From a virus (taxonomy: Duplodnaviria; Caudoviricetes), in the IMG/VR virus record IMGVR_UViG_3300027736_000001, positions 1,311-65,310 of that record: 64,000 nucleotides of DNA. One strand, written 5' to 3'. The notes below the pieces were generated by a model. The model ran no database searches. It saw nothing but the letters and a program-made list of their open reading frames with translations, and was not told where the DNA came from. Position 1 is the stretch's first letter, and each line of letters opens with the position of its first letter. Below, piece by piece: positions 3,199 to 64,000 of the stretch. Both the position numbers and the translations under genes were made by a program.

Positions 3199-3225
3199 GT
3201 GTTCGCTCCTGTTGTTGTGGGGATT

Positions 3226-10062: not shown

Positions 10063-10072
10063 CACCCAGACG

Positions 10073-10097
10073 AAAAAAAAGCCGCCCGAAGGCGGCT
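10073..10097 (-). terminator. Intrinsic terminator with cUUCGg loop
   Basis: Minus strand GCCGCC-TTCG-GGCGGC then T8. Confidence 0.9.
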
Positions 10098-10123
10098 AGG
10101 ATTTACCCTTGGTCTAACAAATG

Positions 10124-10582
10124 TTAGATCGATGCTTTCTCAATGGCTCGGTCGATGTACCACTTGGCCTTCTGCAAGTCTTGCAGTCGGTTGCCTTTGT
10201 GGTCGGCGCGGGTGATGTACTTCACGGCATTGCCCAAGTGATACCCCAGTGCCTTTGCTTCAATAAAGTCGATGGTCTCAATCCCGCCCACCTTGTAGTG
10301 CTCAGGATGATTCACTGGGTCGGCCTTTGGTTCTTCTACGGCGATTTCAGGCATGGGTATCATTTTGGGGGGTTGCCATACCGCAATCCGTTTGAAGTTT
10401 CCAATCTTATTGGCAAGTTCCAGTTTGTTCTTGTCCATCTCTCGCTTCACCATGTACGCAATCTGATACGTGGTCTTGAATTTCTTCGCAACTTCGTTGA
10501 CGGTAGCCTCTGGGTTGCCGTTGTAGTACTGACGCATCAGGGATGCGCGGGATACCTTCTTTGCTTTTTTAGCTGTTGCCAT
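10124..10582 (-). CDS. DUF3310 (SaV-like) domain protein
   Basis: DPVNHPEHY..GGIETIDFI...GNAVKYITRA.HKG..LQDLQKAKWY. Confidence 0.85.
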   Translation of the reverse strand: MATAKKAKKVSRASLMRQYYNGNPEATVNEVAKKFKTTYQIAYMVKREMDKNKLELANKIGNFKRIAVWQPPKMIPMPEIAVEEPKADPVNHPEHYKVGGIETIDFIEAKALGYHLGNAVKYITRADHKGNRLQDLQKAKWYIDRAIEKASI

Positions 10583-10787
10583 TGTTTGCTCCTTGCATTT
10601 GGCTGTTGATGTACTCGGTAAGAATTTCTCTCATCTTGGCTTGCTTTGTATACGGATATTTGGTGTTGAAATAATCCATCACCTCCTTTGGTAGACGCAA
10701 GCTCGTGCAAAAAAGTGGCGGCTTCTTACCCAACCCCCGCCCCTTCTTTGGCTTTATCAGTTTCAGTTCCTCAATTCCCGTTGGCAT
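10569..10787 (-). CDS. Small DNA-binding protein (RHH/BrnA-like)
   Basis: GRGLGKKP..TSLRLPKEVMDYF. Confidence 0.55.
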   Translation of the reverse strand: MPTGIEELKLIKPKKGRGLGKKPPLFCTSLRLPKEVMDYFNTKYPYTKQAKMREILTEYINSQMQGANNGNS

Positions 10788-12996: not shown

Positions 12997-13153
12997 CTTT
13001 TTTCCTTTCGGGTGGTTTCCACCCAAACTTAATCCATGTTGCTTGCACATCTGTCGATGCTGATGGGGTGTACTTAAACGCTGGGTCTAAGATACTCTTC
13101 GGTCTGTATGCCATACCTATCGGGGGTACAGCTTTGAGTTTTAGTTGTTTCAT
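12980..13153 (-). CDS. Small hypothetical protein (57 aa, ...SILDPAFKYTPSASTDVQATWIKFGW...)
   Basis: Hand-translated; AAGGAG RBS. Confidence 0.6.
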   Translation of the reverse strand: MKQLKLKAVPPIGMAYRPKSILDPAFKYTPSASTDVQATWIKFGWKPPERKKDESNS

Positions 13154-13179
13154 TGCAGTTGCTCCTTGTCTAATAGTTG

Positions 13180-14016: not shown

Positions 14017-14026
14017 CTAATACTCC

Positions 14027-14881
14027 TTACCATTCAAACTTATTGATAATTGCGTCCACCTTGGACTTCAATTCACTGCGCGTGTCGGCATCTTCCTTGA
14101 TGCTCTCCATGTCCGCGTTCAACATGGCTACCTCTACTTGCCTACGGGCTTCCTCCAACTTCGGGTCGTTGGTGATGTTCAACTTGGTCAGAAGAGAACA
14201 GAGTTCCAAAGGATTGGTAAGCAACGTGTCGTGGTAACGCTTCTTGCCGTCATCCCCCTCAACATCAGTCAACTTCTCCGACATTGCCACCAACGTCTTA
14301 TGCAGACGCTCCCACGGCTCGCGCATTGCCTCTGCCAACTTGCGGTCTTGCTGTGACATAAACTCGCTGCGCATCTCCTCCAGGTCATACGCAGGAATGT
14401 CTAAGCGAAAGTCACCAGCCTCGGGCACAGGCTTGACTGTGCGGCGAAAGCCAAACTTCAATCTAACATCTGTTAGTTCGGGGTAGTCCTCTGCCTTGTA
14501 CAGCCCCTGCAACGCAGTCGGTGCCTCGGCAACCAAGCGCGGGTACTCAATGTAGAAGTTGTTGCACATCATGTTGAACGTCTGCTCGAACCCATTCATG
14601 GTCTGCTTGTAGTCCATGAACAACGCAGTCGGTAACATGCGCTCACCCTTGTCGGCCCAGGGCAATGTGTGCTTGTTGTGATACAGGCGCACTCGTGCGG
14701 CAAAGTCTGATATGTCTTTGCGTAGGCTCGTACCTGCAAACAAGTTCTTCTTGGTCTGCGATGCCCCACGCACCGCCCCCGCATCTGAGTTCACCTTGTC
14801 CGTGATCTCTCGGTCGATCTTGGACGCAGGCCACACACTGATGTTCAATTCCACTAACACTGCTGATGCACTGATACTCAT
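14027..14881 (-). CDS. DUF3150-like protein
   Basis: SAVLVELNISVW...TLPWADKGERMLP; helical; lies downstream of the AAA/vWA pair. Confidence 0.55.
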   Translation of the reverse strand: MSISASAVLVELNISVWPASKIDREITDKVNSDAGAVRGASQTKKNLFAGTSLRKDISDFAARVRLYHNKHTLPWADKGERMLPTALFMDYKQTMNGFEQTFNMMCNNFYIEYPRLVAEAPTALQGLYKAEDYPELTDVRLKFGFRRTVKPVPEAGDFRLDIPAYDLEEMRSEFMSQQDRKLAEAMREPWERLHKTLVAMSEKLTDVEGDDGKKRYHDTLLTNPLELCSLLTKLNITNDPKLEEARRQVEVAMLNADMESIKEDADTRSELKSKVDAIINKFEW

Positions 14882-14903
14882 TTCATTTCTCCTTGGTTAA
14901 AAA

Positions 14904-15110
14904 TTACTTCTCTTTCGCTAACTCAAGCATCTGTGAGGCGGCTTTGAGGGTGAGCTCTCCAGCTATCACCTCTGTGCCAAATCTTGCCCCCGCCTTGACC
15001 CGCACAATGGCCCACACTCCGTCTCCGTTGTCGCGTAGCCGTAGTTCTTCCTTCGGAATCTGCGGCAGTCTTGTGTCAGTCCATCCGTACTTGTATCTGC
15101 TCATGTTCAC
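14904..15110 (-). CDS. Hypothetical protein
   Basis: GTGA-coupled ORF. Confidence 0.55.
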   Translation of the reverse strand: MNMSRYKYGWTDTRLPQIPKEELRLRDNGDGVWAIVRVKAGARFGTEVIAGELTLKAASQMLELAKEK

Positions 15111-15358
15111 TCCTTCACGGGCTTACCCGCCAGCTTCGACATCTGATACTGCGCGTTAGATATGACTTTCATGGTGAATTGTCTGTCTAACGGAAATACG
15201 TGATAGGTGTAATCGGTGTCGATACCACTCTTCTCCTTCTCTTCTTTGGTGCGGTACTTCTCCTCGAAAGCCTCGGCCTTTGCCAGAATCTCAGCAAGTC
15301 GTATTGCATCCTCGGTCGGCAACACCACACTGCGATACCCCAAATCAATAACTACCAT
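15107..15358 (-). CDS. Hypothetical protein (MVVIDLGY...)
   Basis: AGGAG RBS overlaps the end of palindrome 15369. Confidence 0.6.
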   Translation of the reverse strand: MVVIDLGYRSVVLPTEDAIRLAEILAKAEAFEEKYRTKEEKEKSGIDTDYTYHVFPLDRQFTMKVISNAQYQMSKLAGKPVKE

Positions 15359-15392
15359 GTTCGTTCTCCTAACAGTTGTTAGATACCAGATT

Positions 15393-16580
15393 TCAATCTC
15401 GAATATGAATCGTCTTGCCATTTGGCGCAACATCATCATTACCCCCCACAATCACCCACAACAGAGGTGCAGTCCACTCGTTACCCCAGTCGCTACCAAC
15501 GTACCCATCGGTGAGCATGATGATGCACTCAGGCACGATGTGCTTGTCCTTGAGATATGTGGATACGCAACTAGGTGAAGTACCTCCACCGCCCGCTGGC
15601 CTGGTTGACTGCACGATGCTAGATACAGTAGCGCCTGTATAGGTCTCATGCCCCGCCACCTCGCCGTCCCAGTAGAGCAAGTCCACTACCTCGGGGCTTA
15701 CTTCCTCTGCGATACCCTTAACCTCGGAGAGAAACTCGGCGAGTTCCTTCCCGCCCACCGAACCGGACGTGTCAACACCGATCACCAAGTGACCCACCTT
15801 CTCACCTATCAGCGTAGGCATGTACACGCCTGTGGATAAGAATCTGCGGTTGACCCTGCGCCATGAGGACTTGTCCTTGGCACTGCACGTTGACTTCACA
15901 AACTCACGCAACACTTCGCGCCAATCGACTTTGGGCTCCATCAAGCCTTCAAGTTCGCGGTCAAGGCCACCTGTATTAGTTCCCGCTTTCTTGGCGGAGA
16001 TGAGTCCTTGGCGTATCGCTTGGTCAATCTCTCGTGCGAGTACCTTCTTCTCTTCCTCGGTCATGTCCTTGGCACCATCCCAATCGTGGATGTCGAACCC
16101 ATCGCCCTCGCCTTCGCCGTCATCCTCCTCCTTGAGTATGTCGAACACTTGCTTGGCATTCATGCCTCGGAATCGCTCGTCCACCAAGCCCATCACCTTG
16201 CCCTTGTTCGGCCCATCGGTATAGCGTGGCATGGCAATCACTGTCTCGCTCGGGTCCAAGTCCTTGAGCATGAGGTTAATCACGTAGTCACAAGCGGAAT
16301 TCGCCAAGTGGCGGTTCTCGTCATGCAACTTGCGCCATGTAGTGAGATGCCGATACATCTTGTGCGCGTTCTCATGCGCCACCACAAACGCCAACTCGGG
16401 GTCGCGTAGCTTCTTCACAAACTCGCGCCCATACCGCTCGTCTCGCCCATTGGTACAGGCGGTCGGGATGTTGTCATCCACTCTAGTACGCCCAACCATC
16501 ATGATGCCGCTCAGCAATGCGAATTTGGAATTGCGCATCAAACTGATCTTTGCCTTCTGCACTTTGCGTTCTTCTAACAT
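15393..16580 (-). CDS. Metallopeptidase-vWA protein (DUF2201-like)
   Basis: TACTNG, AHENAH (HExxH), VDTSGS MIDAS, GGGGT, LTDG. Confidence 0.85.
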   Translation of the reverse strand: MLEERKVQKAKISLMRNSKFALLSGIMMVGRTRVDDNIPTACTNGRDERYGREFVKKLRDPELAFVVAHENAHKMYRHLTTWRKLHDENRHLANSACDYVINLMLKDLDPSETVIAMPRYTDGPNKGKVMGLVDERFRGMNAKQVFDILKEEDDGEGEGDGFDIHDWDGAKDMTEEEKKVLAREIDQAIRQGLISAKKAGTNTGGLDRELEGLMEPKVDWREVLREFVKSTCSAKDKSSWRRVNRRFLSTGVYMPTLIGEKVGHLVIGVDTSGSVGGKELAEFLSEVKGIAEEVSPEVVDLLYWDGEVAGHETYTGATVSSIVQSTRPAGGGGTSPSCVSTYLKDKHIVPECIIMLTDGYVGSDWGNEWTAPLLWVIVGGNDDVAPNGKTIHIRD

Positions 16581-16583
16581 TTG

Positions 16584-16880
16584 TTAGCTCCTTTGTTTCA
16601 CTTCAGTTTCTTCAATACTTATAAGCATCTTCAATGCCGATGCCATCTGCTCTATGTCGTGTGTCTCAAGCAACACGTTTCTTTTGGAAGTGTCCCCTGA
16701 TACATGCTCCCGCTTCAACAACACAAATCGATACTCTGGTAGGTCTTGCGATTCAAACATCCGGCGCTCCAACTCCACTCGGTAGTGGTAATTGCTGTTC
16801 TTGAGTTTCTTCTCCAGATACTCAATCTCCTCCATCCTCAACGGCCAAGCCACCTTGCTGTATACCGCCGCATATAACAT
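16584..16880 (-). CDS. Hypothetical protein bounded by palindromes at both start and stop
   Basis: ATG in copy 16874, TAA in copy 16574. Confidence 0.6.
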   Translation of the reverse strand: MLYAAVYSKVAWPLRMEEIEYLEKKLKNSNYHYRVELERRMFESQDLPEYRFVLLKREHVSGDTSKRNVLLETHDIEQMASALKMLISIEETEVKQRS

Positions 16881-16883
16881 TTG

Positions 16884-17123
16884 TTAGCCTCCTTCCTCTG
16901 GTATCAGTAGCTTCACCATGTTGTTTAACTCCTCTGGGGTGTCAAACTCATGGACGATCGTGAACATACCCGCACCCACGCCGCTCTGCTCCAAGCGGTA
17001 CAGCGCATACTTGGATACACCCTTGTCGATGTACCCTCCTACTGTGTACCCTGCGTCTCGCAGTCGCTTGGAGGTGCGGGTATGCGACACCCATCCGTTG
17101 TCTACTTCAAGGTCTCGAGTCAC
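16884..17123 (-). CDS. Hypothetical protein
   Basis: GTGA-coupled; stop in palindrome 16874. Confidence 0.6.
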   Translation of the reverse strand: MTRDLEVDNGWVSHTRTSKRLRDAGYTVGGYIDKGVSKYALYRLEQSGVGAGMFTIVHEFDTPEELNNMVKLLIPEEGG

Positions 17124-18184
17124 AGCAGGTCTTGGTTCTTTGCTACCCAGTTGCTGAACGCCTGACAGCTAAACGCAATGGCTTGCTTGTCTCGGTTCTT
17201 GGCAATGTTGATAGCGAACACGGCTTGCCACTCGGCATCGAACCGCTCCACATACTCCATGAATGGGGTGATGCTTTGCTTGTCGATACGTGCAATGGCA
17301 CCGAACACAACGATCGCACATGCGCCAGGGCTTGTGGGTACCTTGGTGTGCTTAGGGTCTCGGATGGTCGCCTCCCATGTCGGCAATTGATCTGAGAATT
17401 CAATGTACGCTTGCATGTCACGCGCACCACTCTCACCGATAGCACCTGTCAACGCCGCAATCACCGCATCGGTGTCGTTCTCTCTGCGAGTTCTAACAAT
17501 GTTAGATGCCGTCTCCAATGAGCGTGGGGTTACGAACGCCGTCATAGTCTTGCGGGGGTTGAAGATGTAGGGGTTGTCGGCTTGCCCACCATCGGTGTAG
17601 CTTGCAAGTACGTGGGGAAAACGATTCACCCATGCAATCACCTCGGGCTCGATACCCTTGTTGATAGCCCACTCAATCCACTGCTCGGCATCGGGCTTGG
17701 CTACGTTGAGAGACACAAGGCGGTTCAAGCTATGCGCCTTCAACACATCGCCCACGCCATCGGTCGTTAGATTACCTGTCAAGAAGATGGGGCTACGATT
17801 GTCAATGGTGATGTCACCAAGGCGAGGGTTCGCCTTCTCAAGCATTGGATGTAGCATGTTCTTCACAGGGTCGGCACCTTTTGAGTACTCGTCCAGCATG
17901 ATGACGACAGGCTTGCCCTCGTGCAGTTTGAACCGCGCATTGGGGTAGTAGCGGGTGGTCTTGGTCTCGTGGTCGATCACAGGCATCGCAATGTCGCCCA
18001 AATCCATATTGGGTACGTCAATATACGCATAGTCGTACCCCAAGTCCCCAGCGATCGACTCCAGCAGGGATGACTTGCCGATGCCGGGCTCACCTCGTAA
18101 CATGAACCTCGTGGTCGGGTTCGTTTTGATAAGCGTTGCCGCTTGCTTCAAGGTCACAGTTTTTCCAAAAGTTACTTCTGACAT
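17120..18184 (-). CDS. MoxR-like AAA+ ATPase
   Basis: GEPGIGKS Walker A, IMLDE Walker B, TGN sensor, TPRS. Confidence 0.88.
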   Translation of the reverse strand: MSEVTFGKTVTLKQAATLIKTNPTTRFMLRGEPGIGKSSLLESIAGDLGYDYAYIDVPNMDLGDIAMPVIDHETKTTRYYPNARFKLHEGKPVVIMLDEYSKGADPVKNMLHPMLEKANPRLGDITIDNRSPIFLTGNLTTDGVGDVLKAHSLNRLVSLNVAKPDAEQWIEWAINKGIEPEVIAWVNRFPHVLASYTDGGQADNPYIFNPRKTMTAFVTPRSLETASNIVRTRRENDTDAVIAALTGAIGESGARDMQAYIEFSDQLPTWEATIRDPKHTKVPTSPGACAIVVFGAIARIDKQSITPFMEYVERFDAEWQAVFAINIAKNRDKQAIAFSCQAFSNWVAKNQDLL

Positions 18185-18267
18185 TTTCAAACTCCATCTG
18201 ATGTGCCGTTTCTAACAGTTGTTAGATTCGGCGGGTTACAAACAAACACTTCTACTTACCAACCTAT

Positions 18268-18296
18268 ATTATACCACAATGTTATGGATATGTCAA
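18268..18296 (-). promoter_or_regulatory. Consensus sigma70 promoter TTGACA-17-TATAAT with extended -10
   Basis: TTGACA tatccataacattgtgg TATAAT. Confidence 0.9.
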
Positions 18297-18305
18297 GTTT
18301 ATAGG

Positions 18306-19364
18306 TCACACTATCTCTGATATCCACTTGGCGTACTTCGGGTTGGGAGTCTTCCCCACCTCCAGCGCCACATGCTCCAGCACCTCCTCGGCGTGGTACT
18401 TCAATATGGCTTCGTCCACCATGAGCATCCACGCATTCACATCGACCCACCCATCCATCTCGTAGTCGTGCAGTACCCACTCATTGTTGTGAGTGGCCCT
18501 ACTCTCCCAATACCCTTCTACCAATAACGCTATCGCACCTCGGTAGAAGTTCTCGTGCCGCACATCCTCGGGCTGTCCGTTTACGATCGTGTCGGTGAAC
18601 GTTTTCATGTTCTCCTCATACTTGCGTATCGCATCGCGGTAATCTTGCTTTTGCACCTCCGTTGGGTTGAAGAAATACAGCTTTGTCGGCTTGCCAAAGA
18701 TGCAGTCGGTCTTCTCGCGGTTCAGTGCTTTGGCATCGTTGTATGCGCTGTCCATCACACCAAACATATTCACCGCCTCCTGTATGCCAAAATTGATTAC
18801 ATTGAACCTTCGCTCGTATGCCCTGCCCTGATGTAACACACGCTCCTCTTGGCGTAGGTTTATGAACCCACTCAGATACTTGCGGAATTCAGAGTAGCGC
18901 GATCTAACATTTGTTAGAGCCTTGCGATTTGCTTTGTACCCATAAAGCGTTTCGTGCTCCAGCACTCTCCATGCGTTAGTCCCCTCATGGCCCATCGTCA
19001 GCGTGTTGTCGCCTGTCATGGTGTAGTATCGGTTGCCCAATCGCAAGATACTGCTCCCGTTTTTCCCATGCGCAGGTATGCTTAACACTTGTTGGATGAA
19101 TTGGTGCGATGACACACTCGCCCACCCATTGGTGCGTAGCACGATCTTGCCGTTGGCCTTGTATGTGATGACCGGAGTCTTATACAAAACAAACTCCACA
19201 TCATCGCCGTTCATGCGCACAGAGTAGCTGTCCACATCCTTGCGATTACCCAAGGGTCGAATCTCGGGCACTCGTCCCCTGATTGGTAGAGCGGTGTCGT
19301 GTACCTGTTTGGCGTCCGCATAGTCTGTCACCCTCGGTACTCTCTTCACTGTTGCGTATCCCAT
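18306..19364 (-). CDS. Hypothetical early protein
   Basis: 352 aa ORF. Confidence 0.75.
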   Translation of the reverse strand: MGYATVKRVPRVTDYADAKQVHDTALPIRGRVPEIRPLGNRKDVDSYSVRMNGDDVEFVLYKTPVITYKANGKIVLRTNGWASVSSHQFIQQVLSIPAHGKNGSSILRLGNRYYTMTGDNTLTMGHEGTNAWRVLEHETLYGYKANRKALTNVRSRYSEFRKYLSGFINLRQEERVLHQGRAYERRFNVINFGIQEAVNMFGVMDSAYNDAKALNREKTDCIFGKPTKLYFFNPTEVQKQDYRDAIRKYEENMKTFTDTIVNGQPEDVRHENFYRGAIALLVEGYWESRATHNNEWVLHDYEMDGWVDVNAWMLMVDEAILKYHAEEVLEHVALEVGKTPNPKYAKWISEIV

Positions 19365-19365
19365 C

Positions 19366-19530
19366 TCATTCCCCCTGTGCGCGTACTCGGTACGCTTTAA
19401 GTTTTTTCAGCGTTGGATATGTTGCTTTGAACATCTCCTTGGCCACCTGTTTACTGCGGCATTCGATCGACTCGGCAACCCATTGCCCGAACCTGTCGCA
19501 CCACCCTGTCACGTAGTATCTAGCTAACAT
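19366..19530 (-). CDS. Small hypothetical protein (54 aa, MLARYYVTGWCD...)
   Basis: Hand-translated; ATG in palindrome 19524 with AAGGAG RBS. Confidence 0.65.
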   Translation of the reverse strand: MLARYYVTGWCDRFGQWVAESIECRSKQVAKEMFKATYPTLKKLKAYRVRAQGE

Positions 19531-19533
19531 TTG

Positions 19534-20031
19534 TTAGTCTCCTTTTTCTGCTTCGATTGTGTATTCCCCAAGAGCTATGCACTCCATCATTCGGCGTATC
19601 TCAGCATCCACAAACTCCCATGTGCGGTAGCTTGTAGTCGGGGGCCATGAAGCCTTCCCGCTGTGGTTGACCATGCGCATCTTGATATAGAGTCCGGGCA
19701 AAAAGTCCTCGCTGTGGGCACAGTCAAACCCGAACCACCACACGTTGCCCTCCCTGCCGCTGTACGTCAGCCCACCATGCGGAGTGTTGTCGTCCATCTC
19801 CACTCGGTTGTAGTCCACCCCCACCAACTCCCCAGTGGTTACACCCACGTAACCACAAAGCGTATGCGTTATGGTGTTGCGCATGATGTGCCCATGCAGT
19901 CCAGTGCTCTCGTCCACCCACTCGGCATGGTCGGGCTCCCCCTCCCAGGGTCGGTGTGGTTCGATCAGTTTGTACTGGTCGTAGATGGATACCAGCATGT
20001 CGGGCATCCCAGGTGCTTTAATTTCTAACAT
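19534..20031 (-). CDS. Conserved phage protein (CGYV...HGGLTY...WWFGFDCAH)
   Basis: Widespread phage motif; ATG and TAA both lie in palindromes. Confidence 0.75.
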   Translation of the reverse strand: MLEIKAPGMPDMLVSIYDQYKLIEPHRPWEGEPDHAEWVDESTGLHGHIMRNTITHTLCGYVGVTTGELVGVDYNRVEMDDNTPHGGLTYSGREGNVWWFGFDCAHSEDFLPGLYIKMRMVNHSGKASWPPTTSYRTWEFVDAEIRRMMECIALGEYTIEAEKGD

Positions 20032-20309
20032 CTGTTAGTCTCCTCATGTCTCTCGTACATGTTGTACTCGGCACGATGCCAAGGGTGAAACAGTGTTTTA
20101 CTGTCATTGGGATACTTCTTGCGAAGCATGGTCACGGCATCGCACAACCGCTCATGGATGTTCAACTTTATGTCGCACACGTCCATCAGCCTGTCCTGCA
20201 CACCGCGCACCTCGGGGTTGCGCATCAACTCCAGCGTCAGCTTGTCGGCTTGGTCGCGTTTGTCGATCAACACTTTGAATCGGTCTCGGGCTTCTCTTAC
20301 ATCCATCAT
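20025..20309 (-). CDS. Hypothetical protein
   Basis: GGAGG RBS; TAG stop in palindrome 20025. Confidence 0.6.
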   Translation of the reverse strand: MMDVREARDRFKVLIDKRDQADKLTLELMRNPEVRGVQDRLMDVCDIKLNIHERLCDAVTMLRKKYPNDSKTLFHPWHRAEYNMYERHEETNRC

Positions 20310-20413
20310 GGCCTCCAGATCAAAACATCAGCACATACCACAATAAGTGCAACCAAAAACACCACGCGCAGTACGCGCTCGGACAGTTTGTAATCATTTG
20401 TTCCCTTGTTCAT
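20306..20413 (-). CDS. Small membrane protein (35 aa, ...VVFLVALIVVCADVLIWRP)
   Basis: Hand-translated; ATGA overlaps at both ends. Confidence 0.55.
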   Translation of the reverse strand: MNKGTNDYKLSERVLRVVFLVALIVVCADVLIWRP

Positions 20414-20598
20414 TCCTCTTCCTCCTCGGTTGCCTCTACACCGCAGAGGGTCATGACTTCTACTAGCGCATGATGGACATCTTCAAAGTACTCGGGATGG
20501 ATTCCATCGGGGTCGCGCAAGTAGTTGCGCAAGTCCTCGTCTATCGCTTGCAACAGCTTGTGTAGGCGCTCGATCTGGTCTAGGTCAAAATCTAACAT
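20410..20598 (-). CDS. Hypothetical acidic protein
   Basis: ATG in palindrome 20592. Confidence 0.6.
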   Translation of the reverse strand: MLDFDLDQIERLHKLLQAIDEDLRNYLRDPDGIHPEYFEDVHHALVEVMTLCGVEATEEEEE

Positions 20599-20645
20599 TT
20601 GTTAGTTCCCTTTCATTGGTTGTTTCGGTTGGTTGTTTCGGTTGT

Positions 20646-20846
20646 TCACTTCGCTTTGGCCCCAGGTTCGAGTTCAAACCCACCCTCGGTTGGGATGACG
20701 GCAATCTCGCCTCTGGATACTTTGAAGAGTAAAGCAAGGGTGAGGCTCATGTGGAAGCGCAACTCCCATCGCATTTTGAAGTACAGAATAGTCATCACGA
20801 CAAAGCCAATGAGTGACACGAGTTCGAGTTCGGTCATGGTTATCAT
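20646..20846 (-). CDS. Small membrane protein
   Basis: N-terminal TM; AAGGAG RBS. Confidence 0.6.
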   Translation of the reverse strand: MITMTELELVSLIGFVVMTILYFKMRWELRFHMSLTLALLFKVSRGEIAVIPTEGGFELEPGAKAK

Positions 20847-20858
20847 TCTTGGTTCTCC

Positions 20859-21041
20859 TTATGAATAAGTGTTTGCTTTGGCTTGCTCGTTGTAGAGATT
20901 GACCATGCGTTTTTGCACATCCTCCCAACCATCGCCCCAGTACAGCATTTGCATTGCCATACCAATAGACCAGCGCACATCGCTTTCGTCTTCCATGTGT
21001 TTGACTGCTTCGGCAATCAACTCGTCAATATTTATCTCCAT
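20859..21041 (-). CDS. Hypothetical protein (MEINIDEL...)
   Basis: TGATG coupling. Confidence 0.55.
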   Translation of the reverse strand: MEINIDELIAEAVKHMEDESDVRWSIGMAMQMLYWGDGWEDVQKRMVNLYNEQAKANTYS

Positions 21042-21283
21042 CACATCTCTCCTTGTGGGGGGAAGTCTTCTTCTTGCAAGGGGGGCAACTCCATTGCTTC
21101 CTTCATCATGTGCCACACATCGCCGAATGTCTCCATGTCCTCTGCCCCAAGGCAGGGGTCGCCGTACCCATCGGGCTTACCATCGTAGTAAGTCACCTCT
21201 TGTATGCAGTACCAATCCTCCCCGCCATTGGCAGTCTTGGTGTTGACAATTCTGTAGTTCCAATAAAAATCAAAGTCGCTCAT
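21041..21283 (-). CDS. Conserved phage protein (WNYRIV...IQEVTYYDG)
   Basis: Common phage motif; AAGGAG RBS. Confidence 0.65.
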   Translation of the reverse strand: MSDFDFYWNYRIVNTKTANGGEDWYCIQEVTYYDGKPDGYGDPCLGAEDMETFGDVWHMMKEAMELPPLQEEDFPPQGEM

Positions 21284-21513
21284 GCTCGGTTCTCCTTTGG
21301 GTTAGTCTGCTTCAGCGTTGTGGGTGCGCTGTTAGCGGTAACGTATTGATAGTTGCCTTTTGTGTATTCCTGCACAATGCACCACGATGTACGTTCCTCT
21401 TGGGCACTGTGTTCTCGGTCACGTTCGCAAAAGATGCAGAACGCTTGATACCTTGCGGTCGGTACGTCATCGCCGCAGTCGATGCATTCTTTCCAGTCTA
21501 AGTCCATCATCAT
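21280..21513 (-). CDS. Zinc-finger protein (CxxC...CxxC)
   Basis: CIDCGDD...FCIFCE; first gene after promoter 21609. Confidence 0.65.
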   Translation of the reverse strand: MMMDLDWKECIDCGDDVPTARYQAFCIFCERDREHSAQEERTSWCIVQEYTKGNYQYVTANSAPTTLKQTNPKENRA

Positions 21514-21608
21514 CTAACCTTTCTTTCTTTGTTACGTTATGAATCTAACAGTTGTTAGATTCGGGGATTGGTCGGGGGCTTTGTTACATTTATCCCTAAC
21601 CAGCTTAT

Positions 21609-21637
21609 ATTATACCACAAAGTTACAGACTTGTCAA
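21609..21637 (-). promoter_or_regulatory. Consensus sigma70 promoter TTGACA-17-TATAAT with extended -10
   Basis: TTGACA agtctgtaactttgtgg TATAAT. Confidence 0.9.
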
Positions 21638-21914
21638 GTTTTTAGCTGGAGGGCTGTCTTTGATTTGCGACCAAAGTTACGGAATTTATGTAACAAAAGG
21701 GGAAACGTAACGCAAAAACATAACGCGAAAACTTCAATGGAATCAGGGGGTTAGAGTGTTTGTGTATGTATATGTTATAATGTTATTAGAGAAAAAGGGT
21801 ATACGAGCCTGGTGGCTTTTGGTGTGTGGTGCAAATTGCGCTTTCTGCCTTGCTTGGAACTTGACGGACCTTCATACACCCCGCGTAACATTGTAACATA
21901 TAACATTGCTTTAA

Positions 21915-21927
21915 AATCAACAACTTA
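21915..21927 (+). promoter_or_regulatory. IHF consensus site
   Basis: AATCAA-caac-TTA matches WATCAANNNNTTR; near match AATCAG-gggg-TTA at 21741-21753. Confidence 0.55.
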
Positions 21928-22112
21928 CGTGTGGTACGTTATAACATTACAACGCCGAAACATAACAACATAACATTTGTTAGATTTGGGGGGCACTGTG
22001 TTTATGTACAATACATTGTGGATGCTCGCGTATACACAAGGTTGCTACGCCCACCCGAAGAACTGGTGCAAGCAAAATCGGGTTAACCCTAACAATGTTA
22101 TGTTCCACCAAC

Positions 22113-22174
22113 AAAAAAGCCCGACCTAACAAATGTTAGATCGGGCAAACAAAAAAGCCCCGCATGAGCGGGGC
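22113..22174 (-). terminator. Two tandem intrinsic terminators
   Basis: GCCCCGC-tcat-GCGGGGC-T6 (22151-22174) and GCCCGA..palindrome..TCGGGC-T6 (22113-22146). Confidence 0.85.
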
Positions 22175-22195
22175 TTAGGGGTGCGAGGGGAGGGG

Positions 22196-22726
22196 TTAAC
22201 CCAACTTGTCGATATCACCGCCGAGGGATTCGAAAACCTCCATCAATGTGCCTTTGTAATCGCTAGCGATACATGACACGCCTTCTTCTTCGGCCTTAAA
22301 TATACGATTGATAATCGTTTTCAATTCGGCCTTGGTTTTGTCGTCAATGTCAGTTGACCCCTTGACACGGTTTCCCGCTGTAACATAACCCGATGCTTCT
22401 TTGACACGTTGCCAATAAACATCAATGGTAGGTTTGCCAAACCCCTCCGCTGTCATTGCGGCCACAAATGCTTCCCTCTCCGCCTTGATACCCTTCTTCA
22501 ATGCGCCTTTGAGGTCGAACCATTTGGTTGTCACTTGACCCTGGTTGTCGGTCAAGTCAAACGTGGCACACAAGGCCAGGGCGTAAACCTTGACCACTTG
22601 ACCGGTTTTCTTGGCCGCGCCGACTAAGGCGGTGCGAGAATCGATCAAGCTGTTGACGCCCTGGGCGATGGGGGAAACGACACTAACGCTTTGGATGTTA
22701 TCCATGATACTAACCTTTTCTAACAT
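22196..22726 (-). CDS. Hypothetical protein, monocistronic first gene of the early arm
   Basis: Own promoter and terminators; ATG in palindrome 22720 (alternative start 22705). Confidence 0.7.
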   Translation of the reverse strand: MLEKVSIMDNIQSVSVVSPIAQGVNSLIDSRTALVGAAKKTGQVVKVYALALCATFDLTDNQGQVTTKWFDLKGALKKGIKAEREAFVAAMTAEGFGKPTIDVYWQRVKEASGYVTAGNRVKGSTDIDDKTKAELKTIINRIFKAEEEGVSCIASDYKGTLMEVFESLGGDIDKLG

Positions 22727-22795
22727 CTGTTAGGTTTGCACATTGCGCTACCTATCTTGAGCATACATACAAGGTTATCTTGTTTGCATGACTGG

Positions 22796-22824
22796 ATTAT
22801 ACCATTTTGTGGTGCAAAATGCAA
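22796..22824 (-). promoter_or_regulatory. sigma70 promoter TTGCAT-17-TATAAT with extended -10
   Basis: TTGCAT tttgcaccacaaaatgg TATAAT. Confidence 0.75.
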
Positions 22825-23099
22825 GTTTTTAGGGAAACAATAATTTCTCTTGGGGGGAATGGGCATAACAATGTTAGTTGTCATTCTGACAAGCGACCCA
22901 CCCACCCAAAACTACGACAAAGGGAGGTGGGGACCCCTTACACTCTGTGTCACACACCCGATACCAACATCCATACTTTCTATAACGGCGTAGTATATTT
23001 TGAATACTAGATACCCACCCCCATACTTTTTATAACAATACCCCCCTCCCCCCTATATATTTTTGAAAACACCCCCCGTCAAAGGGACCCACAAAAAGC

Positions 23100-57608: not shown

Positions 57609-60600
57609 ATGGCAACCGGACCTTGGGACGCATACAAATCAGACGCATCCCAAGGGCCTTGGGCGCAATACGCCGCTCAGCCAGAACCTGTTTCTGAAGG
57701 CCCTTGGACCCAGTATGCTGTTGCGCCTAAAGTAGAGGCCGAGGAAAAGCCGCAAGCAACCACATCAAACCCGTTTATGGGAATGATTGGTCGTACCGCA
57801 TCTTTGACTGGTGCAGGTGTTGGGGCCGTGGCAGAAGTTGCCGAGCGAATTGGTGATAAGTTGGAATTGGCTGTGCCGCTGTCCGGTATCAGTGAAGAAG
57901 ACATAAAGAACAAGAAGCAGCTTCAACCCCTGTTTGATTGGGCTAAATCGCTTAAAGATTTTGACGAGAGTATCGGCTATCAACCTAGCACGCAACTTAA
58001 AGAGTTGGGTAGCAACCCCCTCAAGGCTGTACCGTTCATTGCCGAGCGCGTGCTGACTTCTTCTCCAGATATGGTGGCAGCGGCAGGGGTTTTCCCTGCT
58101 TATATCATGGCGCGTACCAAAGAAATTTTGGACGAGCGCGTTAAAAATGACGAGAAGACGCTTGATGACGCCACTGTCGGAGACGTAATTGCTGCGGCTA
58201 CTGCCGCTATTGTAGAAGGCACGTTTGAACGCTTTGCCACCAAAGGACTTTTAAAACCCACTGTTGGTAAAACGGGCGCTGGGCGCATTGGAAAAGAGAC
58301 AGCTATTCAAGCTGGTACTGAGGCTTTGGAAGAAGAAGCGGCGTACCTTGGTGAAGCTGCGGGGACCAAGAAAGGTCTCAGCGCAGAAGAGGCGTTGAAT
58401 CGTGGCTTGGAAGCTGCGATCGTTGGTGGTGGTCTTGGCGCTGGCGTGCAGGGCACAAAAGAATATCTCAACCGCAAACCCGAAGCTGCCTCAGAGGCAC
58501 CTGCACAAACAGTTGCCGGACAACCAACGACTGCCCCTACCGTAGAAGAAGCTGCTGCTGCGCCAACGCCCGGTGTGCCACAAATTGATCCTGCGCGTGT
58601 GGAGCAATTAAAAACCACATTTACGGATATGGGGCTGACGCCCGCCGAGGCTGAAATCAAAGCCGTGGAAGCGGCTACTTTAGAGGCAGAAGATGATGCG
58701 GCTTACGAAAGAACAGCGCAAGGAGCAGAAAATGTTGCAGGAACTGACACTACAGCAGGTGGAGCAGGCGCTCCAGTGGTTGGACAGCCCGGTGCAGTCA
58801 GCGCCCCCGCAGGAGTTGGAGCAGTTGAGCCAAGTGGAGTGGTACCTGTTGGACAAAATGTTGCAGCAACTCCTGCTGGAGAAGCGGTTCAGCAGCCTGC
58901 ATTAACACTTGATGAACGGGTTGCTTTAGACGAAGCCGAGCAAGCCAAGTCTGAAGCAAAACGCGCTGAAGCCCAGCAAGTTGCAAAAACTAATTTTGAC
59001 GCTGCTCTTGACCAAGTAAACAGTCCTGAGTACAACGGGGATGTCAATGCGGCTCTTGACTCCTACCGCCAAAACACAATTGACACGCTTGTGGATAATG
59101 GGGAGACCGATCAGTTTGTAATTCGCCAAGCTGAAGATACGTTTGATCGTCTAGCCACAGAATACAAAACCAAACAAACCCCCGCAACTGAAACCGCAGA
59201 AGGCATCCCGCCTGTTGAAGAGCAAGCTGCACTGCAAGAAGAACTTGCCGCAGAACAAGCCAAGACGGACGTTGACCACGCCGAGGAAGCCCCCATCCCT
59301 GATTCAGTTGCCAACGTGATTGGCGATCTGGCTGACCTTGCGCCTGAGATCGAGGCCGAGACCCAAGCTGAAACTGAAGCTGCGCCTAAAGGCAAACGCG
59401 GGCCGAAGGGCGCTCGGCTAACACCAGAGCAAAGGGCCGCGTCAGATCAAAGGCGTGAGCAACAGCGCAAAGATTGGAAGTCCAACAGCAAAGCAGTAGA
59501 TGCTGCGGATGCGGCACTTAATAATGCACTGACACCCTTGGACCCCAGCGGCTACGACAGTCTTGAGGCCGCGCAAGAAGCGGTTGAGAGCCAACGAATT
59601 GGCAAAATTCAAGCAATCAAATCATTGTTGTTGTTGGGGCGCGTGCTTAAAGGTACGCAGCTAGGCGCTAGAGTTGATGCGTTGCTTAAAAATCCGGCAA
59701 TCACTGCCAGGGAACTTGCTGATATCAAAACAGGCATTGCTGCCCAAGTATCCAAGTCTGCTGCTCAAGTCAAAACGGGTCGGGCCGATACCAGATTCAA
59801 CAAGATGACCACTGGCCAGCAAGCGTTGCGGCACGTCATCAAAACAGGTAATCCATTCCAAAAGTTTTTGGCCCAGCGCCTGCTGCCGTTTGTCAAAGAC
59901 GTTCGCTTCCAAGTCATCGAGGAGGATGCTCCTCTGCCCCCGCAAATTACTGAGGGCGGCGCTGTTGAAGACTGGGATATGTCTCGTGGGTTGTTTCTGC
60001 GTGTTGTCTCTACAGGCGAGCGATTTGTATTTGTCCGGGGCGTGACTGGGGGTCCAAGCCAAGGCATAAACAACGTCACTGTGCTGCACGAGATGCTGCA
60101 CGCCGCCCTAAACAAGAAAATGGACATGGCGCTTAGTGCGTTGCAATCCGGGTCTATTTTTGAGCGTCGGTCCGATTTGGGTAAGGCTTACAACGCCTTG
60201 TTGGATACGATGAACCTGACGGTCAATCGAGTAAATGAAATGCGCGAAGCGGGCACTTTGCCCGACTTCATGGAGGATTTAATCGCCTCCAACATTTTTG
60301 GAGACCCCCGCGAGTTTGTTGCGTATGCAATGTCGGACCCCACCTTTCAAAAGTTCCTGATGGACACGCCGGGGGTGTTGAAGCAGTCATTGTTCACTCG
60401 CTTCGTCAACAATGTGCGGCAGTTCTTCAACATGGGGCCGATGCACACAAGTGCCCTGTCAGATGTAATCAACCTCACCGACAAGATGCTGACGTCTCGT
60501 ATGACGCCTTTGATGCAAGCCGAGGTTAAGAACGAACAGTTGACAGCAAAAGAAGCCGAGGTTTCTTCCCAACTCAAGACCAAAAAGAAGAAGGCCAACG

Positions 60601-63600
60601 CAACGGAAACCAAGATTGAGAAGAGCAATACTGCCGACACGTTCCGTGATCTGGGCACGTTGACCAACCTGCGCAGCATGAACGATTTTGTAAATGTGAT
60701 GCTGTTGCGGGGCAAAGTTTTTTCAAACGCAGCGTTGCGTCAACTTCTACCTGCGCTGCAAACCAGTGCGGTTGTGCAGTGGGCCGACCGACTCGGTATC
60801 AAAGGCATCAAAGAATCTTGGCAGTACCTGGGCGATATGGCTGCGATGCGCAATGAGCGCACCAATGCTCTGTTCCCTATATCTGATAAGCTGGCGAAGC
60901 TGCATCGCACATCTATCAAGCAGTTCAAGGCTTTGGCTGACGTGATGCACTATTCCACGCTGTTGTCGCGGGACCCAACCAAGCCGTTCTATCTGCTTGC
61001 TGGTACGGGCAAAGACCGTATCTCCATGTCTTTTGCCACTGCTGCCGAGCGTGACACTTACGCAAAAGCCAACGCCCAAAAGTTACAAGACTTGGGCGGC
61101 AAACGTGAGTTCACCGATCCTACGTTGGAGCGACTGTGGAAAGGGTTAACCCCCGACGTTAAAAAACTTTATTCGGACGTGCGTGACTTCTACATAAACA
61201 ACCACGACATGTACCAAGATTTGCTCCAGCAGCAGATCAATACGTCCAAGCTTGACCCCACGGCGCAAAAGAAAGTTATCGCCGAACTCAAGAAGATGTA
61301 CGAGGACGGCAAGAAGCTGTATCCGTACTTCCCCCTCATGCGTTACGGGCAGTATTGGCTGCGTGTCGGTAAAGGTAAGAACCGTGAGTTCTACATGTTT
61401 GAAAGCGAGATCAATCGAGACTTGTTTGCGCAAGAACGGGCAAAGCAGTTAGGTGAAAGCTTAGACGACCTGAAGCAACGCAAAGAAGTGGACGCTGGTA
61501 ACGACCTGTCGGATGCGCGTAAGAATGACCAAGAACCCAGCAGTATGCTAAAGAAGATGTTTGAGGCCATTGACAACGGCGCGGTAGCGCAATCTGTTAC
61601 GGACGATCAAGGGAACTTAGTGTCCACAGGTATGTCCAAAATTGACGTTGATCGCCTCAAGGATGAGATTTACCAGATGTACTTGCAGACGTTGCCCGAT
61701 CGCAATTTCCGCAGGCAGTTCATGCACCGCCAAGGCACGACGGGTTTCACTGGAGACATTGCCCGCAACTTTGCTGTGACGGGTACAAACATGGCCAATC
61801 AATTGGCCCGCATCAAGTACGGCCCAAAGATCATGGGGCAGCTTGACCGCGCCAGCGACTCCCTCCAAGGGAATCCAAATAAAGCCAGACTTGGTGAGTT
61901 TGTGACTGAGATGCGTATGCGTGCAGAGACGCAGGTGCGCCCTGATCCCGAAGACAGTGCTATGTACGGGGCATCCGCTTTTGTGAACCAATCGGCGTAT
62001 CTGTGGCTGATGACTTCGGTGAAAACTGCTGTGGCACAGTTAACGGCCATTCCAATTTTTGTTGGCCCAGTGCTCACTTCCAATCACGGATTTAACCCAG
62101 CCAAAGTTGCGGCGTCTTTGGGGAAATCTTTGGCCATCTTTGGCTCCACTGGCGTTACACGCACTGCTGCGGACGGCACGTCCACTTACGAGTTTCCATC
62201 TATGCTCAACAACCAATTGGTGAAGTTGACTGGGGACGAACAACTTGCGGCTCAGTACATGGCGGACCGAGGGATTAGCGATACCACGTTGGCTTATGAC
62301 TTGGGTAATCGTAGAGCAAAGCCTACACAAGCAACTCAAGGGGCAGTAGCCCGGACTTGGCGGGTTACAACTAACACCATGACGGCGTTGTTCCATCACA
62401 CCGAACGCATGGTGCGGGAAGTCACGTTCATGACTTCGTATCGTTTGTATCGAAGTGAAATAAACCCCGACACAAAGAAAAAGTACACCCACGAAGAAGC
62501 CCTGCCATTGGCCGAAGCCGAAACATATCAGGCGCTGGGTAACTATCACGCATCAGAGCGTCCTCGTGGCTTGCTTGCTACCGCAGAGCGGAGTGTTTTA
62601 ATCAACGCTCACAAGCCGCTCGAAAGGGCGCTGTTGCAGTTCAAAATGTTCCCAGCGTTTGTGACCACGTTCTTCCTTCGCAACGCTTACCGCATGGTTG
62701 CCGGGCTGGATGCCAAGGACCGGGCGAAGGCTATGACTCAGTTCTTTGGAACAATTGCCATGTCTGGGATGATTGCTGGCTATGCTGGCGTTCCTGGCGC
62801 GTCTTTTATGATGGGCGTACTTCAAGCCATGAGCAAGTCAAAAGACGAGGACGAAGAGGACCCCCTTGACGAACGCGATTTGGAATTCTGGTTTCGCAAC
62901 AAGTGGCTCCCTGAGACTTTTGGCAGCGTGAAGGTTGGCAACCACACTTTGGACGAAATCCTTGACCGTGGGGTGCTCACGGCCATGACTGGCTACGATA
63001 TCACTGGTAGCTTATCACTCAACAACATGTGGATGCCCGAGGTCAAGGAATCCGCTACTGCAACTGCTGCGATGCAAGAATATCTTATGTCGTTGATGGG
63101 GCCGGGCTTTTCACTTGGCTTTAAACAAATACCCCAAGCAATTGATTACTACAACAAGGGTGATATCTTGCGTGGAGTTGAGCAATTGATGCCAGCGTTT
63201 GTTCGTGGGGCGTTCACTGCTGAACGGTATGAGCGCGAGGGTGCTACTACTGCGTCAGGTGCAATTATCAAAGATGCCGACGAATTTACCAAGGGTCAAC
63301 TGTGGGCGCAGCGATTTGGGTTTGCCACCGAAGGGCTTGTGGCCCAGCGCGAAGCAATCTTCCACCTCCAAGGCGAGATTCTCAAAGTTAAACGTGAGCG
63401 CACTGAACTGCTTGATCGGCTGGAGCGGGACTTGGACAAAGGTTCGGACGAGGACGTGGAGAAGGTGCTCACCAAGATGGCCAAGTTCAACTCCAGCAAT
63501 CCTTTCGATGCCATCAAGTACGAGAACATCAAAGCCTCGTTGAAGAAGCAGCTTGAGCGCAAGATGAAGTCTGATCGGGGTATGCCAATCGATAAGAAAT

Positions 63601-63677
63601 ACTACCCGCAGGTCATGGAGATTTTGGAACCTTCCACCCGCAAATTGGACCGCGAAGCGCAAGCGGCTCGGCAATAA
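57609..63677 (+). CDS. Giant (2022 aa) ejection/polyvalent protein with HExxH metallopeptidase-like domain
   Basis: VLHEMLH then EFVAYAMS; YFPLMRYG; last gene of the late arm. Confidence 0.65.
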   Translation: MATGPWDAYKSDASQGPWAQYAAQPEPVSEGPWTQYAVAPKVEAEEKPQATTSNPFMGMIGRTASLTGAGVGAVAEVAERIGDKLELAVPLSGISEEDIKNKKQLQPLFDWAKSLKDFDESIGYQPSTQLKELGSNPLKAVPFIAERVLTSSPDMVAAAGVFPAYIMARTKEILDERVKNDEKTLDDATVGDVIAAATAAIVEGTFERFATKGLLKPTVGKTGAGRIGKETAIQAGTEALEEEAAYLGEAAGTKKGLSAEEALNRGLEAAIVGGGLGAGVQGTKEYLNRKPEAASEAPAQTVAGQPTTAPTVEEAAAAPTPGVPQIDPARVEQLKTTFTDMGLTPAEAEIKAVEAATLEAEDDAAYERTAQGAENVAGTDTTAGGAGAPVVGQPGAVSAPAGVGAVEPSGVVPVGQNVAATPAGEAVQQPALTLDERVALDEAEQAKSEAKRAEAQQVAKTNFDAALDQVNSPEYNGDVNAALDSYRQNTIDTLVDNGETDQFVIRQAEDTFDRLATEYKTKQTPATETAEGIPPVEEQAALQEELAAEQAKTDVDHAEEAPIPDSVANVIGDLADLAPEIEAETQAETEAAPKGKRGPKGARLTPEQRAASDQRREQQRKDWKSNSKAVDAADAALNNALTPLDPSGYDSLEAAQEAVESQRIGKIQAIKSLLLLGRVLKGTQLGARVDALLKNPAITARELADIKTGIAAQVSKSAAQVKTGRADTRFNKMTTGQQALRHVIKTGNPFQKFLAQRLLPFVKDVRFQVIEEDAPLPPQITEGGAVEDWDMSRGLFLRVVSTGERFVFVRGVTGGPSQGINNVTVLHEMLHAALNKKMDMALSALQSGSIFERRSDLGKAYNALLDTMNLTVNRVNEMREAGTLPDFMEDLIASNIFGDPREFVAYAMSDPTFQKFLMDTPGVLKQSLFTRFVNNVRQFFNMGPMHTSALSDVINLTDKMLTSRMTPLMQAEVKNEQLTAKEAEVSSQLKTKKKKANATETKIEKSNTADTFRDLGTLTNLRSMNDFVNVMLLRGKVFSNAALRQLLPALQTSAVVQWADRLGIKGIKESWQYLGDMAAMRNERTNALFPISDKLAKLHRTSIKQFKALADVMHYSTLLSRDPTKPFYLLAGTGKDRISMSFATAAERDTYAKANAQKLQDLGGKREFTDPTLERLWKGLTPDVKKLYSDVRDFYINNHDMYQDLLQQQINTSKLDPTAQKKVIAELKKMYEDGKKLYPYFPLMRYGQYWLRVGKGKNREFYMFESEINRDLFAQERAKQLGESLDDLKQRKEVDAGNDLSDARKNDQEPSSMLKKMFEAIDNGAVAQSVTDDQGNLVSTGMSKIDVDRLKDEIYQMYLQTLPDRNFRRQFMHRQGTTGFTGDIARNFAVTGTNMANQLARIKYGPKIMGQLDRASDSLQGNPNKARLGEFVTEMRMRAETQVRPDPEDSAMYGASAFVNQSAYLWLMTSVKTAVAQLTAIPIFVGPVLTSNHGFNPAKVAASLGKSLAIFGSTGVTRTAADGTSTYEFPSMLNNQLVKLTGDEQLAAQYMADRGISDTTLAYDLGNRRAKPTQATQGAVARTWRVTTNTMTALFHHTERMVREVTFMTSYRLYRSEINPDTKKKYTHEEALPLAEAETYQALGNYHASERPRGLLATAERSVLINAHKPLERALLQFKMFPAFVTTFFLRNAYRMVAGLDAKDRAKAMTQFFGTIAMSGMIAGYAGVPGASFMMGVLQAMSKSKDEDEEDPLDERDLEFWFRNKWLPETFGSVKVGNHTLDEILDRGVLTAMTGYDITGSLSLNNMWMPEVKESATATAAMQEYLMSLMGPGFSLGFKQIPQAIDYYNKGDILRGVEQLMPAFVRGAFTAERYEREGATTASGAIIKDADEFTKGQLWAQRFGFATEGLVAQREAIFHLQGEILKVKRERTELLDRLERDLDKGSDEDVEKVLTKMAKFNSSNPFDAIKYENIKASLKKQLERKMKSDRGMPIDKKYYPQVMEILEPSTRKLDREAQAARQ

Positions 63678-63701
63678 AAAACCCCCGCACTAAGGCGGGG
63701 G
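63676..63701 (-). terminator. Intrinsic terminator between the convergent arms
   Basis: Minus strand CCCCCGC-cttagt-GCGGGGG-T6. Confidence 0.85.
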
Positions 63702-63764
63702 AAAGGGAGGAAGGGAGAACCTTCAAGGAGCAAACATCATGTGCTGGCAACTGCATTCCCAGCA
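63676..63764 (-). ncRNA. Candidate ~90-nt sRNA with anti-SD tracts
   Basis: Promoter-like TTGCGG-17-TACACT (63798-63770), 5' hairpin, C/U-rich middle, terminator. Confidence 0.55.
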
Positions 63765-63777
63765 TCGCCAGTGTAGC

Positions 63778-63972
63778 TCATACCCGCCACACCCGCAAAC
63801 CTTTGATGCCCTCTACGATCACAACTTTTGTAACAATACGAATTTTCAGTCGGCCCATAACTTCCTTCACTGCACGTTTTGCTGCCTTGTGGTCAATGCA
63901 GGGTACAAAAAAGGAATGGCCGACCCGAAACTTCGCCCAGTTAATCCTGTACGTTACTGTCTCGATCTTCAT
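63778..63972 (-). CDS. Small conserved phage protein
   Basis: INWAKFRVGHSFFVPC...GLRVWRV. Confidence 0.7.
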   Translation of the reverse strand: MKIETVTYRINWAKFRVGHSFFVPCIDHKAAKRAVKEVMGRLKIRIVTKVVIVEGIKGLRVWRV

Positions 63973-64000
63973 TCGCGTTTAGCATTACATCCATTTGCAG
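63941..64000 (-). CDS. 3' end of a gene entering from the right edge (possibly primase-DUF927)
   Basis: Open frame LQMDVMLNANEDRDSNVQD* overlapping the next start. Confidence 0.4.
   Translation of the reverse strand: MQMDVMLNANEDRDSNVQD

Follow-up and report, generated by a model that had tools for sequence, protein, structure and literature searches.

What occupies the 100-nucleotide (nt) gap between two convergent genes near the right-hand end of the virus record IMGVR_UViG_3300027736_000001? The stretch analysed here, referred to as the window, comprises the final 64,000 bases of that 65,310-base single-contig IMG/VR record, the two ends of which overlap by about 127 bases. On one side of the gap lies a conserved gene of 64 amino acids (aa), on the other a 2022-aa late gene that runs towards it. 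An initial annotation, made from the letters of the window, placed a small RNA on the minus strand of the gap, with a promoter, a stretch complementary to the Shine–Dalgarno (SD) sequence and a terminator, and described it as a translational repressor of many targets. The small RNA itself, as a unit with these parts and no open reading frame, was upheld by comparison with relatives, and we consider it likely that a real small non-coding RNA gene exists at the locus. Judging from the sequence comparisons, the RNA probably damps translation of a phage gene. We also lean towards the fuller reading, in which the RNA would have a promoter of its own and would repress by pairing with ribosome-binding sites (RBSs), with the DUF3310 gene as its target in this phage and its nearest relatives.

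From the features described below, we infer transcription from the promoter, pairing in the cell and repression along the following lines. An RNA of about 85–90 nt would be made from a weak host sigma-70-type promoter, the −35 element of which would be formed by the final codons of the 64-aa gene, with the −10 element just past its stop codon. The transcript would end at an intrinsic terminator that would close the leftward replication operon as well. An open C/U-rich stretch with the sequence of the ribosomal anti-SD tail would pair with RBSs and so block the initiation of translation. For DUF3310, a T7 gp1.7-like gene, the RNA would be a two-block antisense of the translation start, one block covering the SD sequence and spacer and the other the start codon and the codons that follow, the two being linked by an 8-nt loop on the RNA side.

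The comparison drew on the best 80 of 184 IMG/VR contigs that carry the 64-aa gene, which together with the window made 81 sequences. Fifty-nine of the 81 differed from one another across a segment made of the final 60 bases of the coding sequence and the 100 bases that follow it, and these formed 23 clusters at 75% identity between the −10 element and the terminator. Six related genomes were complete, from the phage studied here (G000) to G005, and five further fragments of 42–46 kb were compared. The RNA unit accompanies the 64-aa gene in 57 of the 59 distinct relatives.

Sequence features, conservation and complementarity could be read directly from the DNA. The TTGCGG and TACACT hexamers with their 17-nt spacer, the 5′ hairpin, the C/U-rich tract (63736–63702 overall) and the terminator, all described in the initial annotation, are present on the minus strand at those positions (Table 1). 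Beyond that description, the −35 hexamer and the stop codon were found to belong to the conserved 64-aa gene. The pattern T-A-n-A-n-T of the −10 hexamer is close to fixed among the distinct relatives (T 59/59, A 59/59, A 56/59 and T 59/59, with positions 3 and 5 variable), and information is distributed in just this way over a sigma-70 −10 element. At the −35 hexamer, the Leu59 codon is TTG in 50 of the 59; TTG accounts for 29.5% of Leu codons in the six related genomes, and at Leu42, another invariant residue of the 64-aa protein, it is used in 14 of the 59. The adjacent Gly58 and Arg60 codons are free to vary at their third positions. A purine stands 7 nt after the −10 element in 43 of the 59. 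It is by conservation only that a promoter belonging to the RNA itself is recognized, placed within the upstream gene or at its end, as in small RNAs of the DapZ or MicL type.

An intrinsic terminator is likewise found in 57 of the 59 distinct relatives, its stem beginning 31–76 nt after the stop codon. In the window it is the first terminator after the 64-aa gene, and is thus shared by that gene and the RNA, as in the DapZ/MicL type. Between the −10 element and the terminator the sequence diverges strongly from lineage to lineage. Within it, an anti-SD 5-mer occurs in 51 of the 57 RNA bodies, compared with 20.2 ± 3.6 (maximum 33) in 1000 dinucleotide-preserving shuffles, and an anti-SD word is present in 22 of the 23 cluster representatives; an SD-like word on the same strand occurs in none of the 57 bodies. 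The anti-SD word is predicted to be unpaired (probability > 0.5) in 48 of 52 RNAs, and for the CTCCTT core of the seed in the G000 RNA the predicted unpaired probability is 0.64. In 14 of 52 the word begins 5–14 nt after the −10 element, that is, at the inferred 5′ end. Conservation of the anti-SD word, its predicted unpairing and its complementarity to DUF3310 together amount to the conserved accessible seed of a base-pairing repressor RNA.

In a 13-sequence alignment of the nearest clades (A2), 94.4% of the 5′ hairpin cells pair, and one pair changes from G-C to A-U in two sequences; when hairpin and terminator are taken together, 95.1% of cells pair and there are two compensatory pairs. As the 13 aligned sequences are close to each other, this conservation lends modest support to a folded RNA.

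Complementarity points to DUF3310 as the best-supported target in the clade formed by this phage and its nearest relatives. The 13-nt complement to the ribosome site at 10583–10595, claimed in the initial annotation, is present in full (13/13), and was reached in 1 of 300 trials in which the anti-SD cores were kept fixed and the flanks shuffled. To this match our analysis adds a second block and co-variation. The mRNA segment UGGCAACAGC, which consists of the last two start-codon bases and the next eight, is complementary to the hairpin word GCAGUUGCCA at 9 of 10 positions with one mismatch, and the order of the two blocks is compatible with antiparallel pairing; in a gapped alignment, the reverse complement of the RNA is the DUF3310 start region plus an 8-nt insert. 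By gapped match, DUF3310 leads the 92 start regions of G000 (32.5 versus 27 for the next, with 1 of 200 shuffles reaching the top score) and the 85 start regions of G001 (36 versus 28, with 0 of 200 shuffles). At the ortholog level it scores best of 60 groups, with a mean z of −2.53 and ranks of 2/92, 3/85, 2/97 and 1/89 in four genomes. The spacer changes along with the RNA: GUUUGC in the G000 RNA faces GCAAAC in the mRNA, and GUUAGC faces GCUAAC in G001, G002 and three further contigs, the last three compared by eye. When small-RNA and DUF3310 loci were paired by record, 13 of 30 records had a match. In G000 and G001, DUF3310 also comes first by plain duplex energy over the whole RNA, but it leads only narrowly, amid numerous noisy solutions with long loops; target inference was based on exact and gapped complements with shuffles and on the ortholog-level score, not on energy rankings.

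The possible second target, the 142-aa gene, ranks 3/92, 5/85 and 3/97 in G000, G001 and G002 and does not stand out in G003–G005. Its spacer obeys the same co-variation rule, with a G-U pair in G000.

Table 1. Positions in the window of the candidate RNA unit, its proposed targets and the flanking genes
Feature	Position	Strand	Remarks
-35-like hexamer TTGCGG	63793..63798	-	Leu59 + Arg60 codons of the 64-aa gene; read in the sequence
-10-like hexamer TACACT	63770..63775	-	first base 2 nt past the stop codon; 17-nt spacer to the -35
Transcription start, inferred from promoter geometry	63761..63765	-	about 7 nt after the -10
5' hairpin TGCTGG / CCAGCA	63742..63764	-	includes the conserved word GCAGUUGCC (63754-63746), complementary to the DUF3310 mRNA start-codon region
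Seed UGUUUGCUCCUUG, anti-SD + anti-spacer	63724..63736	-	complement 13/13 to 10595-10583
Second C/U-rich tract, UCUCCC and CCUCCC words	63702..63721	-	8-nt matches to genes at 20846 and 21283, chance level
Intrinsic terminator, 7 G-C pairs, 6-nt loop, U6	63676..63701	-	stem 63701-63682, T6 63681-63676; also found by terminator scan
Best-supported target, DUF3310 translation start region, SD to codon 4	10572..10595	-	gene 10582-10124; Pfam DUF3310 E = 5e-22
Ribosome site AGGAGCGAACA, 142-aa gene at 3198-2770; possible second target	3200..3210	-	spacer base follows the RNA
Conserved 64-aa gene, end of leftward replication operon	63778..63972	-	3' end holds the -35; 184 IMG/VR relatives
Convergent 2022-aa late gene	57609..63677	+	LPD39 / DarB-like C-terminal region; stop codon abuts the terminator U-tract

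The proposal that the RNA acts on many phage genes at once did not survive comparison with shuffled sequences, since beyond DUF3310 the claimed matches are at chance level. Start regions with a complement of at least 8 nt number 9 of 92, against a null of 6.2 ± 2.4, and 16% of nulls reach 9; with at least 9 nt, 3 are observed and 1.9 expected. The shuffle null indicates that short matches are what any RNA with these anti-SD cores would give; the proposal itself carried the warning that AAGGAG is common and short matches are partly expected. The individual complements do exist, namely those of 10 and 9 nt at the site before 13153, those of 8 nt at the genes starting at 20846 and 21283, and one of 9 nt at the major head (capsid) gene at 30562. 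As a set they do not exceed anti-SD-preserving shuffles. The rank of the head gene is not conserved among orthologs, being 1/92 in G000 and 27, 14, 11, 58 and 44 in five other genomes.

Several observations weigh against the repressor with its own promoter and DUF3310 target. Its promoter matches 7 of 12 consensus positions and went unflagged by the promoter scan, and because the −35 hexamer sits in an invariant peptide, the synonymous sites of one codon only can speak for it. Five of the 57 bodies are missing the anti-SD word, 2 of the 59 distinct relatives are without the whole unit, and in G001-type RNAs the word is predicted to be paired (unpaired probability 0.22). The 59 relatives are kin, falling into 23 clusters, so the conservation counts are not counts of independent events. 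The co-variation between RNA and target consists of one changed RNA position, a single event on the RNA side, which two target spacers match. Co-folding that allows for intramolecular structure ranks DUF3310 3/92 in G000 and joint second among 85 in G001, and in G002 does not place it among the first 7 of 97. One freshwater metatranscriptome run (X1), in which 7% of the sampled words of 60000–64000 occur, gave four 151-nt contigs at 60810–61725, inside the large gene, and none over 63676–63800; it is uninformative either way. Two further points concern the choice of target. In G005 the G000 RNA also finds 13 nt of complement, within an unrelated gene, which indicates that matches of this length can arise by chance, and no start region stands out in G002–G005, G012, G018, G031, G028 or G022, where between 13 and 133 of 200 shuffles did as well as the best one.

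The main rivals to the favoured reading are a host or general-SD target and a role as an mRNA tail only. Both of the points on target choice speak for the former, in which the RNA is real and its targets are host messages or ribosome sites generally. It would mimic the 16S tail and titrate strong SD sites, and the DUF3310 match would be a by-product of resemblance to a consensus start. Starts of the form AUGGCAAC do recur among the genes of the phage (by eye), and what is kept across the 23 clusters is the anti-SD word alone, with widely different flanks. This explanation sits poorly with DUF3310 being the best ortholog group in four genomes and with a spacer base that co-varies with the RNA; moreover, the titration of all SD sites would presumably need very high RNA levels from a weak promoter. 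We regard it as unlikely, though as the most credible of the alternatives.

The second rival does away with a separate RNA gene altogether. The unit would be no more than the untranslated 3′ end of the replication operon with its terminator, and the C/U tract would be functionless or would act within the long mRNA, for example by folding back on its own ribosome sites. The terminator is indeed common to unit and operon, an operon promoter lies upstream at 10062–10035, the local promoter is weak by consensus and unflagged, and no transcript has been seen, the sole RNA run being without coverage of the locus. Left unexplained, however, are the T-A-n-A-n-T pattern at a fixed distance from the stop codon (59/59) and the TTG bias at the −35 hexamer; a tail role and a separate RNA are, besides, compatible with each other. 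A tail and nothing else seems to us a rather poor prospect.

More speculatively, the phages could make this RNA family to imitate the tail of 16S rRNA and use it for timing in general. In the early phase of infection the RNA would cover strong SD sites on early phage and perhaps host messages; late read-through from the convergent operon would make a perfect antisense that mops the RNA up, and the early-to-late switch would in this way be coupled to translation at one locus. A late antisense of the RNA is possible because the shared hairpin has no U-tract on the late strand. The scheme as a whole is doubtful.

A further explanation takes the promoter–terminator pair as a regulatory transcription unit that involves no base-pairing, whether an antitermination cassette of the lambda PR′-tR′ type, a primer for replication or an insulator that keeps transcription of the convergent late operon from running through. 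It is suited by a short promoter-to-terminator unit at an operon boundary and, on the plus strand, by the hairpin with no U-tract after it, through which late transcripts may read. Yet on the minus strand only the antisense of late genes lies beyond the terminator, so there is nothing to antiterminate into, and an unpaired anti-SD word as the one conserved element of the body would go unexplained; we think such a unit very improbable. Lastly, a plus-strand protein gene starting at AAGGAG...ATG (63739), with the purine-rich stretch as its RBS, has good SD spacing and stays open to the window end (87 aa), but it is antisense to the conserved 64-aa gene, matches no Pfam or PHROG family, shrinks to 11–12 codons in L050–L052, whose 64-aa protein is 95% identical, lacks an SD-linked start in 33 of 57 relatives and reaches at least 40 aa in only 3 of 57, in differing frames, so that comparison with relatives refutes it and next to no likelihood attaches to it.

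How does the favoured small RNA compare with systems already described? For its gene layout, we looked to DapZ of Salmonella, for which a review describes a conserved promoter just upstream of the dapB stop codon (PMC9438474). With DapZ, MicL and MicX the candidate shares a promoter that overlaps the end of the upstream gene, a terminator common to both and a short single-stranded seed before the terminator. Unlike them, it has a phage gene as its parent, and it bears no sequence relation to any of the three. The DapZ seed is GcvB-like, compared with the anti-SD word here.

For its action, a parallel is offered by c4 of phages P1 and P7, described as blocking translation by pairing around the ribosome-binding site of a target on the same strand, with the RNA encoded elsewhere (PMC12197685), and as having complementary segments that are thought to lie in loops (PMC12197685). 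The candidate resembles c4 in being a phage-encoded, same-strand RNA encoded away from its target, and in the masking of a ribosome site that is proposed here. There are two short complementary regions in c4, and the two-block pairing with DUF3310 resembles them. Whereas c4 is cut out of a longer transcript, has no promoter of its own and controls the antirepressor in a temperate phage, a promoter of its own is proposed for the present RNA and its candidate target is the DUF3310 gene. By analogy with these systems, the gene layout is most likely of the DapZ type, and the action most likely like that of RBS-masking phage antisense RNAs such as c4.

A covariance-model scan of 62500–64000 against Rfam gave no family at its gathering threshold, and the C4 antisense RNA family was absent from the seven matches listed at E up to 10. 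Both of the best matches were sub-threshold, RF02278 (Betaproteobacteria toxic small RNA) with 19.8 bits against a gathering value of 50 (E = 0.41) and RF00519 (suhB / mmgR) with 21 bits against 41 (E = 0.16). The toxic small RNAs are reported as having Northern-confirmed expression, and their function in Burkholderia cenocepacia as unknown (PMC4603805). The candidate is like both families in its length class (about 60–90 nt), its C/U-rich words and its terminator; it differs in that its scores are far below gathering, in that their genes are chromosomal, and in that no double-hairpin layout is common to the relatives of the present RNA. The RNA represents a new family, outside every Rfam family tested.

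Apart from the classic temperate coliphages, phages have so far yielded few small RNAs, and literature searches returned none from this large group of uncultured freshwater phages. The locus supplies a candidate that spans the family and is clearly laid out. Its proposed pairing partners are specific and testable, namely the seed of the RNA and the start region of DUF3310, and a compensatory change between the two occurs in nature. If the reading is true, these phages tune their own early genes by DapZ-style 3′-end RNAs, and there would be a new handle on the unexplained DUF3310 / gp1.7-like genes.

In several early genes a palindrome, CTAACA-N(1-2)-TGTTAG, forms the stretch from the spacer through the start codon to codon 2 (for example those starting at 16580, 16880, 20031 and 20598; region 10114–22877). 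In G004-type relatives (the record behind L082) a copy with a one-base centre lies directly on the −10 element and start site of the small-RNA promoter, and the G004 genome holds 12 further copies elsewhere (exact-complement list). The G001-type RNA seed, GUUAG-CUCCUU, includes one palindrome half-site. A link between the palindrome and the small RNA is possible.

In three relatives that comprise two distinct sequences (L105, L106 and L114; ~3196–3300), the RNA body and terminator are missing, the −10 hexamer has degenerated to TATTTT, and only a short distance separates it from the adjoining convergent gene. Here the RNA unit has been lost in nature.

Leftward genes of the phage run from about 22.7 kb, wrap round the record end and finish with the 64-aa gene, and rightward late genes run from 23.2 kb to the 2022-aa gene. 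An LPD39 domain occurs in the 2022-aa protein, and in PHROGs the matches to its C-terminal 800 residues are the ends of very large DarB-like/polyvalent virion proteins; in some relatives, the gene convergent with the RNA unit is a different one. Sigma-70 promoters that match the consensus at 12/12 positions occur at 21637–21609 and at 18296–18268. No phage RNA polymerase was found among the window proteins scanned, and host polymerase is therefore the likely reader of the phage promoters. Immediately 3′ of the DUF3310 gene lies a strong terminator (7 pairs, T8), also present 3′ of the DUF3310 ortholog in G001 and G002, and directly after it a minus-strand sigma-70 promoter at 10062–10035 with 10/12 consensus positions and an extended TG (terminator and promoter together, 10035–10097). 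This order indicates that DUF3310 is the last gene of an early unit and that the replication genes are a separate unit. That leftward replication unit encodes DNA polymerase, helicase and a DUF927 primase-helicase, with the 64-aa gene at its end.

Among the best 80 of the 184 relatives, the 64-aa family comprises 52 distinct proteins with an invariant C-terminal G-x-K-G-L-R-x-W-R, and a 32-sequence alignment has 21 invariant columns. An AlphaFold model of the protein (mean predicted local distance difference test score, pLDDT, 81.7) shows a small strand-helix-strand-strand unit. The protein belongs to no Pfam family, and Foldseek with the model found nothing in the PDB at E ≤ 0.001 (best E = 0.22); blastn with 63300–64000 and tblastn with the protein gave no match in 50,697 deposited phage records. 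By eye, the first 32 nt of the 64-aa gene (63941–63972) also form, in another frame, the 3′ end of the DUF927 primase-helicase gene (935–953 aa), and the 64-aa gene has no SD sequence of its own, which suggests that its translation may be coupled to that of the primase-helicase gene.

When species genomes were scanned with the 64-aa alignment, a Fulvivirga metagenome-assembled genome (MAG) showed a weak partial match, and the scan also led to L253, a 1050-bp contig binned in an Actinomycetota MAG, with the 64-aa gene at 64% identity. L253 carries TTGCGC-17-TATACT, three anti-SD words from 7 nt after the −10 hexamer, and a terminator. It is probably a phage contig swept into the Actinomycetota bin, and no host is drawn from it. 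Within the window, a second intergenic terminator lies on the minus strand at 22151–22200, directly after a 169-aa gene and preceded by a C-rich tract with a CCTCC word; this tract and terminator may be a short 3′ tail only.

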